From Candidatus Harrisonbacteria bacterium (lineage in GTDB: Bacteria > Patescibacteriota > Minisyncoccia > UBA6257 > 1-14-0-10-44-23): a stretch of 64,000 nt of DNA. Within the stretch, counting starts at the first letter, position 1; every line of letters begins with the position of its first letter. The DNA is taken from positions 39,734-103,733 of the forward strand of contig JAHFLF010000002.1 of NCBI GenBank assembly GCA_023255625.1, written 5' to 3'. The translations under genes were made by a program, and so were the position numbers. The notes below the pieces were generated by a model. That model did no database searches and was not told the origin of the DNA. It saw only the letters and a list, made by a program, of their open reading frames with translations. Shown here one piece after another: positions 3,151 through 50,998 of the stretch.

Positions 3151-4116
3151 ATGAATTTTAAAAAAATCATAAATGACAAAGCTCTTATTTGCATCTTTGT
3201 CGCGCTCGCGGCATCAACCCTGATGTTAGGATCCACTCTATTTTTGCTAGATATTTCAAGAAGTAGCGATGACGAGCTAAGAAAATTTCGAATTGCAAAG
3301 CTCACGGAGCCCACCGCCGTAAGCACAATAATTATCGGCGACAGTTCCGCCGGCGCAGCTCTGAATAGCTCCCTTTTTTCTAAACTTTCCGATCGTAGCA
3401 CTAAAAATCTTTCCCTGACTGTTGACGACGGAATTGTCGGGAGTTATTTGATGCTGGAAAAAGCATTGGCCGTTCATCCGGAGATCGAAACGGTCATCAT
3501 AATGCAGACTGCGGATGTTTGGCGCAAGCATTTTTCTAGTGAGGCGTATTTTGAACTAACCCGCCGGCCTGATTTCTGGCCCGGGCAGACCCGTTTTAGC
3601 TCCAGCACATCACTCATCGATTTTATGGCATACGCGACCGACCTGCACCGGCCACTTCGCGTAATCAATTACGCAGCGAAAAAGGTGTTTAATCCGCAAT
3701 GGCGCATTAGTGTTGATCCGGAGCTTGAGCAGGTAACACAACTACCGGAAACCTTTGCCGGCGGGCAGCTGCAAGTTGAGCCGTCATTTCGCCTATCTCG
3801 AACCATGGAGCCGGTTCAAATTTCATCATTCAAAATGATTGACCAGTTATGCGCGCGCCGTTCCCTGCGATGCGTTTTCCTTTTCGGCCCCATTCATGAA
3901 GCGGTCATTAAAAATTCGCCTGCGGAGCTAGCGGAGATTATTCATAATGTTACCGAGATCGCAAAACATATAAAAGTTATTCAAACAGTCCTGCTGCTAA
4001 AAAATGAGCAGGTGGGCGACACAATCAACCATGTGCTGCCGGCGTATAAAGACAAGATCACGGAAAAAATCTATCGAATTATAGAAAACGATTTAGCGTC
4101 AACTGACAGAAAATAA
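3151..4116 (+). CDS. Putative SGNH/GDSL-like partner of the MBOAT protein (DltD/AlgJ-like), N-terminal anchor
   Basis: Starts 5 bp after the MBOAT stop. N-terminal TM helix, then IIIGDSS (GDS-type) motif. Adjacency to an MBOAT gene is the classic two-component O-acetylation arrangement. Confidence 0.4.
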   Translation: MNFKKIINDKALICIFVALAASTLMLGSTLFLLDISRSSDDELRKFRIAKLTEPTAVSTIIIGDSSAGAALNSSLFSKLSDRSTKNLSLTVDDGIVGSYLMLEKALAVHPEIETVIIMQTADVWRKHFSSEAYFELTRRPDFWPGQTRFSSSTSLIDFMAYATDLHRPLRVINYAAKKVFNPQWRISVDPELEQVTQLPETFAGGQLQVEPSFRLSRTMEPVQISSFKMIDQLCARRSLRCVFLFGPIHEAVIKNSPAELAEIIHNVTEIAKHIKVIQTVLLLKNEQVGDTINHVLPAYKDKITEKIYRIIENDLASTDRK

Positions 4117-15494: not shown

Positions 15495-16103
15495 CTAATT
15501 TTGATTAATTTTTATTCTGTCGTGTCTGTGATAATAACTCATAATGATTCCCGCCGGAATAGCGCCTAAAAGGTTGAAAAGCAAATCGAGTGCATTATTC
15601 ATGTAGTCCCCAATCTCTTTTCCAGCATTCAGGAAAACAACCGCAAAAAGTTCCATAATCTCGTTCAGCACACCAACCCCTATTGTAAGAAGAATTATCA
15701 AAAGGGCAAGCAGGAAGAGATTATGTTTTATTTTTTGATCAAGATGCGGAGCCAGCAAGCTGTAGATAATAAGACCGAGAACAAAAGAACCCCAAAGATG
15801 AATAATATTGTCATAGCGCAGAATATCCTGAATAAACCATAGATCATAGAGCCGTACTCCATGCACGGCGATGTTTATACCCGCCACGTGCAAAAGACCG
15901 AGAACAGAAAGTCCGGCAATAATACTCGGCGCTATGTGAAGCGTCTTGTGAAAGTAATAAATTAGCGCTACCGGCAAGCTGATAAAAAAAGCAGTAATGA
16001 AAAATTCATATTTCCCGGCTTGCACCGCTATTAAACCGAAAAAAAGCAGGTAGCTGATGTTAAAAAACAGAAGCGCATTAAAACTTTTTTGGGTTTGCGT
16101 CAT
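15495..16103 (-). CDS. Hypothetical integral membrane protein
   Basis: Five to six hydrophobic helices; no recognised motif. Confidence 0.35.
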   Translation of the reverse strand: MTQTQKSFNALLFFNISYLLFFGLIAVQAGKYEFFITAFFISLPVALIYYFHKTLHIAPSIIAGLSVLGLLHVAGINIAVHGVRLYDLWFIQDILRYDNIIHLWGSFVLGLIIYSLLAPHLDQKIKHNLFLLALLIILLTIGVGVLNEIMELFAVVFLNAGKEIGDYMNNALDLLFNLLGAIPAGIIMSYYHRHDRIKINQN

Positions 16104-16259
16104 AGTTTGACTGCTGGCAAATTATTAGGATTCTTGCTATTAATTATAGTTATAGTATAGAGCATTTGGTGGGGTCGTCCCAGTACCAGAGCACGAAGTC
16201 TTGTTCCCGATTTGTCTGCGAGAACTTGAGCAGGTACAAATCGTAATCCCGTCCAAAGC

Positions 16260-16344
16260 GGAGGTGTCGCATAGCGGCTTAGTGCGCAGTCTTGGAAAGA
16301 CTGTGTGCCGAAAGGCACCGTGAGTTCGAATCTCACCACCTCCG
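16260..16344 (+). tRNA. tRNA-Ser (anticodon GGA), class II with long variable arm
   Basis: Hand-folded cloverleaf: acceptor GGAGGTG/CACCTCC, anticodon stem CAGTC/GACTG with loop TTGGAAA, variable arm GTGCC-GAAA-GGCAC, T-arm GTGAG-TTCGAAT-CTCAC, discriminator G. Confidence 0.85.
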
Positions 16345-16390
16345 CTTTGGACGGGAGAAAGGCGGCATGCCGAAAGTTTACCCGCCTTGG

Positions 16391-16425
16391 GCGGGGCATC
16401 GAGGGTTCAAATCTCTCCCCCACCG
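16391..16425 (+). ncRNA. tRNA-like fragment: GC hairpin, T-arm and acceptor-like 3' strand, with no recognisable 5' half
   Basis: CCCGCC-TT-GGGCGGG hairpin, then GAGGG-TTCAAAT-CTCTC (T-arm-like), then CCCCACC-G. The complementary GGTGGGG occurs only at 16168-16174, upstream of tRNA-Ser. Confidence 0.3.
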
Positions 16426-16453
16426 TAGGCATATTTATTATCGACAAAAGTGT

Positions 16454-17743
16454 CTATTGTCGGCCAAACAAACGGCGAAGAAAAGATGGCTTTTGTACTG
16501 GTTCTGCCGGTTTTTTTGGCGCAGGCACAGGTGAGTCAATATCCCATGATTCATCTGGCGTAACAGGCGCGCTTCTCTCAACGCGCTGCGTCTGCAGAGT
16601 TGGCATTTTTTGTATCGGTCGAGAAGTTGTAGATCCCGGCTCGAAAACCACAGCCCCATTGCATAAAGAAAAGGGTTTCGATCGGCCTATCGGATCCAGA
16701 AATTTATTGAGGGTAACAGTATAAGAGAAGCCGTCAGGCGGCATTAGCGTAACATTGACCCGAAATTCAACATCTCCGTCATGGTGGGTTGAGCCGTAAC
16801 TGCCGGGGCGTTCCGAGTACAAATGTAGGATTGCGTCAACAACATATTCCGCATCATTTTTTCTATAAAACTTGAATTCTGATGGGTCCACATTAGTTAG
16901 TCGCCCAGATGGCAGTCCTTCCTGAACACTTGAATTCTGGGCAGAAAAAATTTGCTCATTGCGTATTGCTCTTAGCTCTGGCGGCCATTTTCCTGGCTCC
17001 GTCTCAATACGAGTTAGGGCGGGTTCACTCGTAGAAACTTTTTCAACGGGCTTGGGTGCTGGCGCTGGCTCAACTGCCCGGCGGACTACCGGAGCCGCCG
17101 GCGCTGGCAGAACAGGCCTTTCTATTTTTACGGGCGGCCTTGGCGCTTCTCTTAACTTCGCATATCTTCCATTGCCATATATAGCTGGTTCTAAAGTAGT
17201 ATAGGTTCTCTTTTCGTCATGCATTCCGTCAGGCACGCTCTCAAAGGAAAATAATCCTGGAATTGCGAATGATTCTTCAGAATTTGCAACTTGACCTCCG
17301 ACATAATACTGAAAGTCGCTACCTGGATCAGACGAAACGCACATATCTAACAAACGGCACGCTCTTCTAAACGCATCCTGAATTTTTGGAATTTTTCTTG
17401 CGACCTCTTGTGATAGGGGTTTTGCAATATCGTCTTTGGTAGAAGATTCAAAAGCATATACGCCATTTTTTCCTCGTACTGCACCCCTGAAAATGCTCTG
17501 AAATAGTATATGGACAATCGTTCTTTGCTGCTCTATCTTTTTTCCTTGATCTGCAAGTTTGCCGACATTTTGATAGTCAAGCAAAATGTGTCGGATGTAT
17601 CTGTCCTCTCCTGGATCAAATTCAGGCAGAAGTTCTAATATATCTCTTAGTTCAGCCGGTGCCGCCGCTATCTCTTCTGGTGTTAATCGTTTTGGCGCAC
17701 CAGTGGGAGCCCGCCCCATCGCCCCGTCAAAATTTTCAGACAT
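16454..17743 (-). CDS. Hypothetical protein with Pro/Ala-rich linker
   Basis: Long ORF; central PAPAAPVVRRAVEPAPAPKP linker; no known motif. Confidence 0.4.
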   Translation of the reverse strand: MSENFDGAMGRAPTGAPKRLTPEEIAAAPAELRDILELLPEFDPGEDRYIRHILLDYQNVGKLADQGKKIEQQRTIVHILFQSIFRGAVRGKNGVYAFESSTKDDIAKPLSQEVARKIPKIQDAFRRACRLLDMCVSSDPGSDFQYYVGGQVANSEESFAIPGLFSFESVPDGMHDEKRTYTTLEPAIYGNGRYAKLREAPRPPVKIERPVLPAPAAPVVRRAVEPAPAPKPVEKVSTSEPALTRIETEPGKWPPELRAIRNEQIFSAQNSSVQEGLPSGRLTNVDPSEFKFYRKNDAEYVVDAILHLYSERPGSYGSTHHDGDVEFRVNVTLMPPDGFSYTVTLNKFLDPIGRSKPFSLCNGAVVFEPGSTTSRPIQKMPTLQTQRVERSAPVTPDESWDIDSPVPAPKKPAEPVQKPSFLRRLFGRQ

Positions 17744-17775: not shown

Positions 17776-18477
17776 TTACGAATGTATCATCGTCCCCTGT
17801 GCCTCTCTGCCTTCAATCAGATTGCGGAGATTGACTAAATCGCGGCCATTTGCCATACAGACCGTCAGATTGTGCTCTGCGGCGTGTTTTGCTGCGGTTG
17901 GGTCAAACGGGGCGCTCATGCCCGGTTTCCAGTCATTTGGAATATAACCCATGTACTCTTTCCAAGTTACATCAAAAAGTTTTTTAGCGCTCGGATCCTT
18001 TTTCGGGTCTGCAGTATACACAAAATCAGCGGTACTCAAGTTAATGACCGCCTCTCCGCCGTAATGAATGGCTAACATTGCTGAATCGTGGTCTGACGAA
18101 CGGCCTGGAATCCAGCCGCTGCCAATTACAACCGGTTTAGTTACGGCCGGCGGATGCGAGGGGTCCTCAATGACCTCGGGGTGTGCGATGTCGGTTAGGA
18201 TACTACGCAGAAGTTGGGCGTTTAGCCGCGTACTGGCGATGCCAATCCAGTCAAGGTCTGCATCTGTCGGTTTCCCGACTGTCCGCGCGGCCTCTTGATA
18301 TACTCTACACAACCTTCCTCCGCCGGTAATAATAATGAAACGATACCCCTCGCTTACATATTGACGAATCTCGTTGGCAAATTCTTTCAGGTAAGCAACA
18401 TCAAGTTCGTTCGGATAAAAAATAGAGCCGCCCAAAGAGATAACAATTAGCTTTTGCTTATCAAAATTGAATTTCAT
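17776..18477 (-). CDS. Amino-acid-kinase family protein, UMP kinase (PyrH)-like, short archaeal/CPR type
   Basis: LVISLGGS...IIITGGG...SDHDSAMLA fits the uridylate/carbamate kinase fold; about 230 aa. Confidence 0.55.
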   Translation of the reverse strand: MKFNFDKQKLIVISLGGSIFYPNELDVAYLKEFANEIRQYVSEGYRFIIITGGGRLCRVYQEAARTVGKPTDADLDWIGIASTRLNAQLLRSILTDIAHPEVIEDPSHPPAVTKPVVIGSGWIPGRSSDHDSAMLAIHYGGEAVINLSTADFVYTADPKKDPSAKKLFDVTWKEYMGYIPNDWKPGMSAPFDPTAAKHAAEHNLTVCMANGRDLVNLRNLIEGREAQGTMIHS

Positions 18478-50293: not shown

Positions 50294-50998
50294 TCAGAGC
50301 CGAGCGAGATCATCGACCAAGCTCTTCGCCAAGTCAGTGTCCCGCACATGGGCATTGATCTGCTCGATCATCTTCGAGAGACCAACGTCCGCGATGAGCG
50401 CCGGATAGCTCCGACGCATCGCCTGCCGCCGATCTTCGGCGACCTTGGGCAGAGGCGGCCTGGACGTGAGAGCTGCGAAATAGCTCTCCGCGTCCTTGCC
50501 GAACGCCTCCAAGGCGGCGTTCTGGACCACCTTCACCTTCGCCGCTGCCTGCGCGTCGGCGAAGTCGCGCATCGCCGCCCGGATCAGATCCGGCGTCTTC
50601 GCCTGCTGCTCGGCCAGGTCCTTGACCTGCGCCGCCAGCGCGACGATGGCCGGGTCGACTCTCGGCGCCTTCTCGAGCGCCTCGAGTCGCTTCTCGAGCG
50701 TGCTCTTGTCGGCGAGCTGCTTCGCCAGCCCGGCGATCTGCGCCTGCAGCTGCTTGAAGGACTCGTCGGACACCTGCGATGCGGCACTCTGTGTGCCGGA
50801 CAGTCTGGCGAGACTCGCCTCCGACGCCGCCAGCCGCGTCTCGAGCCGGTTGATCCCCTCGGTCGCCGCGTCGACGCGCCCGGAGACCTCGTCGGCGTGC
50901 TGACTGCCGCCGCCGAACTGTCCGTAGGAAACCCCCCACGCGACGGCGCCCAGGACCGCGACCGCCCCGACCCACAGAAGAATATTCGTGAGCTTCAT
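50294..50998 (-). CDS. Membrane-anchored coiled-coil protein (GC-rich island)
   Basis: Likely start MKLTNILLWVGAVAVLGAVAWGV (TM anchor) after SD GGAGAGGGAGGG; Ala/Gln/Leu-rich heptad-like remainder. Confidence 0.5.
   Translation of the reverse strand: MKLTNILLWVGAVAVLGAVAWGVSYGQFGGGSQHADEVSGRVDAATEGINRLETRLAASEASLARLSGTQSAASQVSDESFKQLQAQIAGLAKQLADKSTLEKRLEALEKAPRVDPAIVALAAQVKDLAEQQAKTPDLIRAAMRDFADAQAAAKVKVVQNAALEAFGKDAESYFAALTSRPPLPKVAEDRRQAMRRSYPALIADVGLSKMIEQINAHVRDTDLAKSLVDDLARL

Follow-up and report, generated by a model that had tools for sequence, protein, structure and literature searches.

Why does a tRNA gene sit on a continuous 20-bp helix, and to what does the piece of tRNA just beyond it belong? 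These questions are raised by a locus in a 64,000-nucleotide stretch of a Candidatus Harrisonbacteria bacterium genome (GenBank assembly GCA_023255625.1, contig JAHFLF010000002.1, positions 39,734 to 103,733 of the forward strand; the whole stretch is referred to here as the window), in which an original prediction, made from the letters alone, had pointed to a tRNA-Ser(GGA) gene with a greatly extended acceptor stem, followed by an orphan fragment resembling a T arm and a 3' acceptor strand. Here, we find that the observation is real and non-random, and that the unit formed by a tRNA-Ser gene and the two complementary arms that bracket it is a recurrent feature of Patescibacteria, of which no description was found in the literature searched. 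The best explanation, to which we assign a probability of roughly 60%, is a layered locus in which a bracketed tRNA-Ser cassette is nested in, and replaces, a resident tRNA-Ser gene. Features of the tRNA locus are on the forward strand (+) unless indicated otherwise, and loci are designated by numbers with the prefix L.

The bracketed gene and the broken gene around it

The intact inner gene, a tRNA-Ser(GGA) at 16260..16344 with no encoded CCA, was identified by ARAGORN (call at 16260-16345), by Rfam (RF00005, 16260-16344; its 52.5 bits exceed the gathering score of 29, as expected of a genuine tRNA), and by nhmmer, with 72.4 bits over the full length of a hidden Markov model (HMM) built from 22 Patescibacteria tRNA-Ser(GGA) genes located downstream of groEL in related metagenome-assembled genomes (MAGs). 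It is the only tRNA called in the region by ARAGORN and Rfam. A repeat search returned arms of 20 nt each at 16247-16266 and 16337-16356, 100% complementary and 70 nt apart, in full agreement with the 13 perfect pairs beyond the acceptor stem, and hence the 20-bp stem, of the original prediction. The helix comprises the 7 bp of the acceptor stem and 13 additional bp, the first of which, C(-1):G73, includes the discriminator base; the probability of a perfect 13-bp extension arising by chance is about 4^-13. The 5' bracket arm, TCCCGTCCAAAGC, occupies 16247..16259, and its proximal heptamer, CCAAAGC, is common to the nine metagenome loci described below; the 3' arm, GCTTTGGACGGGA, delineated from the inverted repeat and the family alignment, occupies 16344..16356 and begins with G73 itself.

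After a gap of 12 nt, the inner tRNA is followed by the 3' half of an outer tRNA-Ser(GGA) gene (16357..16425, tRNA positions 35-73), recognizable both as an nhmmer match and as a direct repeat of the inner gene. The match to the HMM aligns 16358-16425 with tRNA positions 37-85 of 85, at E = 9.4e-6 in a search of the whole window and E = 2.8e-8 in a local search of 421 nt. Read in order, the fragment contains GAAA, the last four bases of the anticodon loop; GGCGG, the 3' strand of the anticodon stem; the variable arm, with its ATGCC/GGCAT stem intact; the T arm (GAGGG at 16401-16405, TTCAAAT at 16406-16412, and CTCTC at 16413-16417); CCCCACC (16418-16424); and G73 (16425). The loop of the variable arm contains a 19-nt insertion (16377..16395, an nhmmer insert state) with the hairpin CCCGCC-TTG-GGCGGG (16381-16395). 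By a count made by eye, this half is about 88% identical to the L014 tRNA's 3' half, and the stem differences between the two are compensatory. The hairpin, the T arm, the CCCCACC-G end, and an upstream GGTGGGG at 16168-16174, all read directly from the sequence, are as originally described, and the alignment to the tRNA-Ser HMM identifies the fragment as a tRNA remnant, one of the possibilities that had been offered, rather than a chance T-loop-like match. The fragment had been placed some 45 nt downstream of the tRNA, but the gap itself is derived from a tRNA and holds the 3' part of the anticodon loop, the stem strand, and the variable arm.

The other half of the outer gene, tRNA positions 1-34, lies upstream in decayed form (16168..16203) and was identified by a glocal profile, the identity of its first 10 nt, and complementarity to the 3' half. 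It reads GGTGGGG TC GTCC CAGTACCAGA GCAC G AAGTC TTG, with a decayed D arm from which G18G19 have been lost. Against a glocal profile of the 5' halves of the 22 relatives it scores 15.7 bits, a value reached by one other non-tRNA locus in 128 kb; a local nhmmer search with the 5'-half HMM did not pick up 16168-16203, so that the glocal profile was needed. Its first 10 nt are those of the intact tRNA-Ser(GGA) in two related loci, L113 and L115, and GGTGGGG (16168-16174) pairs at 7/7 positions with 16418-16424, including the rare U3:A70 pair. The 21-mer GGTTCAAATCTCTCCCCCACC in this upstream piece is unique in the window, even when 3 mismatches are allowed. The two halves break at 34|35, and the terminal UUG of one and the initial GAAA of the other make up a single 7-nt loop, UUGGAAA. 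Given the nhmmer match of the 3' half, the profile score of the 5' half, and this common breakpoint, the intact gene and its arms very probably occupy the anticodon loop of another tRNA-Ser(GGA) gene, which is broken. The suggestion that a larger RNA encloses the tRNA-Ser was right insofar as the fragment and the GGTGGGG do enclose it, although what encloses it is an older tRNA-Ser(GGA) gene in two parts, the fragment being its 3' half and the GGTGGGG piece its 5' half.

Comparison of the locus with related genomes, which had been put forward as a check, indicates which of the two genes came first. Judged by pyrH, for which no relative above 66% identity exists among 5.8 billion proteins, L115 (66%) and L113 (62%) are the closest relatives. 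The order groES-groEL-pyrH-tRNA-Ser(GGA) is found in both, and L115 runs on into the glycosyltransferase genes of the window; in both, the tRNA-Ser(GGA) gene is intact and without arms, starts with GGTGGGGTCG, and has the U3:A70 pair, like the outer pieces in the window. Identity between the inner gene (GGAGGTG...CACCTCC) and the reconstructed outer gene is only 72%, and each resembles tRNAs of other genomes more closely than its counterpart. The best GroEL matches of the window are in Patescibacteria MAGs, at 67-76% identity, and the relatives found via GroEL have tRNA-Ser(GGA) genes without arms or relics. As an intact, armless gene of the GGTGGGG type occupies the syntenic site in L113 and L115, the outer halves appear to be the resident gene of the lineage and the bracketed inner gene an incomer, not a local duplicate. 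The original tRNA-Ser(GGA) gene would thus have been broken by the insertion of a bracketed replacement, and that the broken gene is a relic of the resident one is as probable as the nesting itself. Identity of tRNA sequences was uninformative as a tracer of a common cassette body.

Two secondary features complete the locus. The segment 16210..16246 (37 nt; hairpin at 16208-16243, also present in the minimum free energy (MFE) fold), read from the sequence, is a small palindromic insertion flanked by TCCCG direct repeats at 16205-16209 and 16247-16251; its removal puts the 5' arm 1 nt from the outer half, as in L087, and it seems to have been inserted later, separating the 5' half from the 5' arm. 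A candidate promoter of the outer gene, TTGCTA and TATAGA separated by a 16-nt spacer (16134..16161), was noted by eye with low confidence and would start the transcript at about G16168; a consensus promoter scan that required T at the last base of the second hexamer did not report it. Elsewhere in the window, inside long open reading frames (ORFs) at about 50507-50545 on the reverse strand (-), another match resembling a 5' half (16.1 bits with the glocal profile, nhmmer E = 2.9) is probably due to chance.

Bracketed tRNA-Ser genes in other genomes

Metagenomes were scanned with the pattern CCAAAGCGGAGG-N62-86-CCTCCGCTTTGG, which fixes 7 of the 13 extension pairs. Each of the nine loci found in this way contains a tRNA-Ser, with the anticodon CGA, GCU, or GGA, and follow-up of the scan brought the number of bracketed tRNA-Ser genes beyond that of the window to ten and added four orthologues whose arms are decaying. 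The eleventh case, the tRNA-Ser(GGA) of L086 (L086b), has unrelated arms, CCCCGTACTGAGC and GCCTAGTACGGGG, with 13 pairs that include one A.C and one G.U. In every bracketed locus the extension ends at 13-14 bp, for a total helix of 20-21 bp. At positions 8-13, which the pattern leaves free, 59 of 60 cells are Watson-Crick pairs, with 2-4 pair types per position; position 14 is paired in 6/10 loci, and from position 15 on pairing is at chance level. The covariation score in a gap-free alignment is 0.45, compared with 0.145 in shuffles (0/500 reaching the observed value) and at most 0.12 in slid controls; this covariation across the family is strong but confounded by possibly independent origins of the arms.

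The 53 evaluable tRNAs in all fetched loci fall into two distinct groups: 11 tRNA-Ser genes with 11-13 of 13 positions paired, and 42 others with 1-7 of 13, among them, on the same contigs, tRNAs of other types and one tRNA-Ser(UGA). No tRNA of another type with arms was found among the 53, and none of the 32 tRNAs first checked in GroEL-linked loci had an extension of more than 2 bp. Viral contigs yielded no bracketed tRNA; a looser pattern gave 7 chance matches, all without a tRNA. Two of the bracketed loci, L085 and L086, belong to Candidatus Buchananbacteria. Another, L089, comes from a Patescibacterium whose GroEL is 51% identical to that of the window, and since the closest relatives of L089 have an unbracketed tRNA-Ser(GGA), the distribution of the family is patchy. 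A literature search of incomplete coverage returned no account of a tRNA nested in a relic with the same anticodon or of a bracketed tRNA-Ser, and a 2014 review of tRNA gene diversity gives only tRNAs with group I introns as disrupted tRNA genes in Bacteria (PMC4033280).

Nesting in tRNA relics recurs at other bracketed loci. In L087 (nhmmer), the 5' piece (positions 1-34) abuts the 5' arm, and the 3' piece (positions 35-85) lies 31 nt past the 3' arm; L090 has the same 5' piece (nhmmer), and where the 3' piece would be expected from its sister locus L087 there is an ORF for a Phd/YefM antitoxin (508-774; Pfam). According to nhmmer, the 3' piece in L092 follows the arm directly and retains the entire CUCGAAA loop, L086a is nested in a tRNA-Ser(GCU) relic split in the T loop, and L086b in a tRNA-Ser(GGA) relic likewise split in the T loop, with a third-layer 3' relic farther downstream; the L086b case was read from the sequence as well. 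By eye, L088 has a 5' relic whose D arm contains a 20-nt palindrome, and L089 a decayed 3' relic containing TTTGGAAAG; no relic was seen in L085, L091, or L093. Wherever both anticodons are fully readable (5/5: the window, L086a, L086b, L089, and L092), that of the relic is that of the nested gene. The insertion follows the third base of a 7-nt loop, at 34|35 in the window and in L087/L090, and by eye the position in the T loop is apparently equivalent in both L086 cases.

In L086a, L086b, and L092, the distal bases of the arms repeat the stem of the hairpin that was hit; L086a, for example, reads GAGGG CCUG CCCCUCA CCAAAGC ... GCUUUGG UGAGGGG UGAAAAU CCCUC. A model of a duplicated stem-loop of the lox/dif type, arising from a small circle, fits these three loci and was rejected for the window and L087, which it does not fit. 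Small, perfect, GC-rich hairpins are also seen in the relic pieces, often in former loops: at 16381-16395 and 16208-16243 of the window, at 13129-13148 of L086, directly 3' of the cassette in L087, and directly 5' of it in L092. The stem CCCGCC/GGCGGG is common to the window and L087/L090, where it stands beside the cassette. They may represent solo arms, or else hairpin insertions of a class of their own. Nearly identical 20-nt GC-rich palindromes, CCTGCCTGCCGGCAGGCAGG and CCTGCCTGTCGGTAGGCAGG, occur at 3777-3796 of L115 and in the relic D arm of L088 (some 50-70 nt upstream of the 5' arm), respectively, and their presence in the D-arm region of tRNA-Ser relics from two distant genomes may reflect a tiny mobile palindromic element.

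Mobile cassette, processing stem, or known architecture

Insertion at the DNA level is favored by the nesting, the foreign inner gene, the patchy distribution, the fixed position in the loop, and the Watson-Crick arms of constant length, and we lean, if only a little, toward regarding the bracketed tRNA-Ser as a mobile, non-coding replacement cassette. Such a cassette would enter hairpin loops of a resident tRNA-Ser, break that gene, and supply its replacement; only replacements with the same anticodon would survive, and after decay of the old copy the cassette could no longer be lost. The mover would be encoded elsewhere and might be a recombinase acting on the 13-14-bp inverted arms or a homing-type repair process. 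The inner tRNA would be transcribed from the promoter of the old gene within a transcript of about 260 nt or more, in which the arms would zip into the 20-bp leader-trailer helix. That helix would have to be cut or opened first, with an enzyme of the ribonuclease III (RNase III) type as the obvious candidate, before RNase P and a 3' nuclease could act and CCA could be added. The helix may have a role in RNA processing, in DNA recombination, or in both. A more tentative extension, in which we place less belief, is that these units represent a previously undescribed class of selfish elements that encode no protein, insert after the third base of an anticodon or T loop, and carry a spare of the gene they destroy; in a rarer version, a bacterial "tRNA-in-tRNA", the nested tRNA would be excised like an intron and both tRNAs would mature.

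Several results weigh against nested replacement by a mobile cassette. No integrase, transposase, or endonuclease is encoded within about 2.5 kb of any of the 11 members; the neighbors are housekeeping genes (enolase, IF-2, DsbA, HtrA, MgtE, and similar), with no protein family common to the loci. Target-site duplications were not found, nor was a second copy of the arms in the 64-kb window or a pair of empty and filled alleles within one species; empty-site alleles, or an arm-to-arm junction (...GGACGGGA joined to TCCCGTCC...), would be the marks of mobility or excision. As for the relic itself, completing the 3' half with the 5' half in ARAGORN was not significant, with 115 of 127,928 random 36-mers scoring at least as high. 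Decay has also gone much further in the 5' half than in its 3' counterpart, and the two strands of the anticodon stem, AAGTC and GGCGG, fail to pair with each other, so the outer halves may differ in age or history. Finally, ten of the arms (those of the nine metagenome loci and of the window) were ascertained through the pattern, with its 7 fixed pairs out of 13.

If nested replacement is nevertheless what occurred, the locus represents a new tRNA gene architecture, always on a 20-21-bp clamp, and a new route of tRNA gene turnover or horizontal replacement in reduced genomes, in which tRNAs are often single-copy, and possibly also a new non-coding mobile element or processing signal. It further provides a concrete substrate for asking how RNase P handles a fully paired leader and trailer. 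In practice, scanners see only the inner gene, a spurious antisense ORF is annotated over the locus, and MAG contigs tend to break at the tRNA.

An RNase III-type processing role for the helix is a putative and tentative part of this scheme. It is unlikely that the extension is chiefly a selected RNA feature, a leader-trailer stem for release by RNase III to which the nesting in relics is incidental; this possibility overlaps with nested replacement rather than excluding it. In its favor, the helix is exactly continuous with the acceptor stem in 11/11 loci, and the flanks supply the nearly perfect duplex of about two helical turns that characterizes RNase III stems (20 bp in the window and 20-21 bp in the 10 other loci). 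The arms in L086a, L088, and L092, which are related, differ by two double changes, both compensatory, and by no single change, and position 15 is a G.U pair in 4 loci. In L091 and L093 the bracket has no relic; a conserved TATAAT box precedes it by about 52 nt, and DUF4446-infB follows. By contrast, no G.U occurs at positions 1-13 in the ten pattern-found loci, which resembles copying at the DNA level, and 42 other tRNAs on the same contigs do without such a stem. Across five orthologous loci that precede DUF4446-infB, arm pairing falls through 13/13, 12/13, 11/13, and 10/13 to 8/13, by wobble and disruptive transitions (3 vs 2) and with no compensatory change, the tRNA itself being 98-100% conserved. 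Such uncompensated decay speaks against the RNA helix being under strong selection, and hence against the processing part of the nested-replacement scheme as well. A processing stem also leaves the location inside relics with the same anticodon unexplained.

The locus resembles processing stems of rRNA, integrase scars, archaeal split or intron-containing tRNAs, and miniature inverted-repeat transposable elements (MITEs), and fails a defining feature of each. In rRNA leader-trailer stems cut by RNase III, a mature structured RNA likewise sits atop a long perfect helix of its flanks, about two turns in length; we know of no such stems for bacterial tRNAs. Unlike the rRNA stems, the helix here runs on from the acceptor stem, its conservation of pairing is unconvincing in the single orthologous series available, and it would hinder RNase P, since a published study describes inhibition of the bacterial enzyme by leader-3' end pairing that extends the acceptor stem (PMC9433436). 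Because arm pairing should block RNase P, a prior cut or unwinding would be needed, for which RNase III is the natural candidate.

With MITEs and other transposons, the bracketed unit shares terminal inverted repeats, the 13-14-bp arms, but it lacks flanking direct repeats, the distal ends of its arms are variable, and the window holds no other copy. Integron attC sites, with RYYYAAC...GTTRRRY boxes, were considered and rejected: AAC and GTT are rightly placed only in L085, L091, and L093, and there are no bulged bases. As in the eukaryotic Dada DNA transposons, described as selfish DNA targeting small RNA genes (PMC8869645), and as in free-standing homing endonuclease genes, represented here by GIY-YIG genes adjoining tRNA-Ser(GGA) in six related MAG loci, a small RNA gene would be the target; unlike either, the cassette encodes no protein, and no GIY-YIG gene stands beside it.

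A classical integration scar, in which an island with an integrase entered tRNA-Ser through the anticodon or T loop, displaced part of the gene, and then disappeared by deletion, so that fragments stand beside the restored gene, is improbable. Integrases that target tRNA genes reportedly prefer crossover in the anticodon loop or T loop (a preference said to have been described by Williams in 2002), and these are the sublocations at which the relics are broken, so that the 3' part begins at position 35 in the window and in the T loop in the L086 cases. The flanks contain variable genes (an orphan 429-aa ORF and a glycosyltransferase cluster), several MAG contigs end at tRNA-Ser(GGA), and in L086a, L086b, and L092 the insert has a copy of the relic stem on either side, much like attL and attR. 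Attachment-site fragments of islands and prophages resemble the locus, too, in the partial copies beside an intact gene, the breakpoints in loops, and the gene function kept by sequence of the invader. However, integrase events duplicate only the 3' part, downstream of the hybrid gene, whereas here both old halves remain, with the 5' half upstream and a complete tRNA gene, brought in whole, between them. The element would be only about 110-150 bp, no integrase was found in any of the 11 loci, and the perfect inverted arms abutting the mature tRNA ends are left unexplained. The original suggestion of an old integration scar holds with respect to the tRNA remnant, while the classical integrase scar, given the 5' half left behind, the size, and the absence of an integrase nearby, is a poor fit.

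Even less probable is an intron-like arrangement in which the bracketed tRNA is excised at the RNA level and the outer and inner tRNAs both mature. Its topology equals that of archaeal split and intron-containing tRNAs (for instance in Nanoarchaeum equitans), whose halves are held at the loop by a complementary helix of about 12-14 nt (PMC4033280). The two L086 outer genes retain all stems, and when the 5' exon is trimmed by 3-4 nt they are called by ARAGORN at default settings, with scores of 105.6 and 108.4, so that at L086 the intron-like arrangement retains some small probability. Archaeal tRNA introns can, moreover, carry C/D box RNA, so an intervening sequence can be a functional RNA. 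In contrast to the archaeal cases, the host is bacterial, the intervening RNA is a complete isoacceptor tRNA, and the outer halves are pseudogene-like. No bulge-helix-bulge motif, with its two 3-nt bulges and 4-bp helix, is present: the helix is continuous over 20-21 bp, and the loop remnants UUG and GAAA stand opposite each other. To our knowledge, no bacterial enzyme performs such splicing, which also counts against this arrangement.

In the outer copy of the window, G18G19 are gone, the D stem is mismatched, two A.G mismatches interrupt the anticodon stem, and the 19-nt insertion is present; joined in silico, the halves of this copy are called by ARAGORN as tRNA-Ser(GGA) with a score of only 95.6, at the 95% threshold and with the insertion also removed. 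At the default threshold there is no call, so the outer pieces do not qualify as a tRNA, and the idea of a functional permuted or split tRNA-like RNA is not upheld. The T loops of the L086 relics read UGAAAAU, without U55 and C56, and constructs of L087 with the insert removed yielded no sensible tRNA. Searches with relaxed and intron-aware ARAGORN on native and deleted constructs were also set aside, as they gave low-threshold, mutually inconsistent calls (tRNA-Ala, tRNA-Pro, and tRNA-Arg with an intron). Group I introns in bacterial tRNAs share the insertion in the anticodon loop and are reported for tRNAs of the Candidate Phyla Radiation (PMC8172020), but the insert here measures about 153 nt and, with 85 of these taken up by the tRNA, could not accommodate a catalytic core, and there is no match to Rfam Intron_gpI at E up to 10 in 15900-16700.

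That the locus is a transfer-messenger RNA (tmRNA), a permuted tRNA, another known tRNA-like RNA, a chance match, or an assembly artefact can practically be dismissed: the MFE fold of 16160-16430, which closes GGTGGGG with CCCCACC beside the T arm (z = -7.2), and a weak match to a mascRNA-like minihelix (E = 0.19) stand against a z-score driven mostly by the tRNA, its 13-bp arms, and the 12-bp hairpin, against the identical sequence in the independent ENA, Logan, and NCBI assemblies and the same architecture in 9 other metagenome contigs, and against the lack of any tmRNA, which the original prediction had also considered, in ARAGORN searches at the default or 70% threshold, with or without the inner tRNA, and of any relevant Rfam match at E up to 10 to the region or to either flank alone.

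GIY-YIG genes and the neighborhood of tRNA-Ser(GGA)

In more than 20 Patescibacteria MAGs (L005-L084), tRNA-Ser(GGA) lies 2-5 kb downstream of groES-groEL, in either orientation (for example, at 11813 in L006, 9438 in L009, 12070 in L011, and 11502 in L016). Several of the contigs end exactly at this gene, which hints at strain-variable DNA beyond it.

Small stand-alone ORFs with a GIY-YIG domain are associated with the same gene. In the roughly 1.2 Mb of loci fetched, a GIY-YIG HMM derived from three such ORFs matched exclusively beside tRNA-Ser(GGA), in six MAG loci: L006 (11435-11824), L012 (6185-6565), L014 (10826-11146), L033 (9552-9818), L043 (11573-11950), and L115 (3776-4000, the same as L116 2137-2361). 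Three of the six ORFs were compared with Pfam, and those three match the GIY-YIG domain. In L115, the intact gene is preceded, at a distance of about 290 nt, by a duplicated 5' fragment of tRNA-Ser(GGA) (3761-3808, positions 1-24) that the palindrome CCTGCCTGCCGGCAGGCAGG breaks up, and the GIY-YIG ORF lies between the two. The adjacency in all six loci suggests a homing-endonuclease family residing at tRNA-Ser(GGA). Thus, from the GIY-YIG ORFs adjoining it and the layout of L115, tRNA-Ser(GGA) is a target of selfish DNA in this group, and at least one insertion restores the gene by bringing part of it. As no GIY-YIG gene occurs in the window or beside any bracketed tRNA, a link between these genes and the cassette can only be inferred.

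The 429-aa ORF adjoining the locus in the window (16454-17743, -) is an orphan, with itself as the sole match among 5.8 billion proteins and without a counterpart in Pfam or NCBIfam; in L115, the syntenic gap lacks both this ORF and a DUF2238 gene (15495-16103). In public annotation, a 110-aa protein runs antisense over the whole tRNA locus (16100-16447, -; L001 7312-7644), and this ORF is almost certainly spurious. Beyond the orphan ORF, the UMP kinase gene pyrH (17776-18477, -) encodes a protein that scores as the archaeal type (TIGR02076, 163 bits) and not the bacterial one, in a genome whose GroEL is bacterial.

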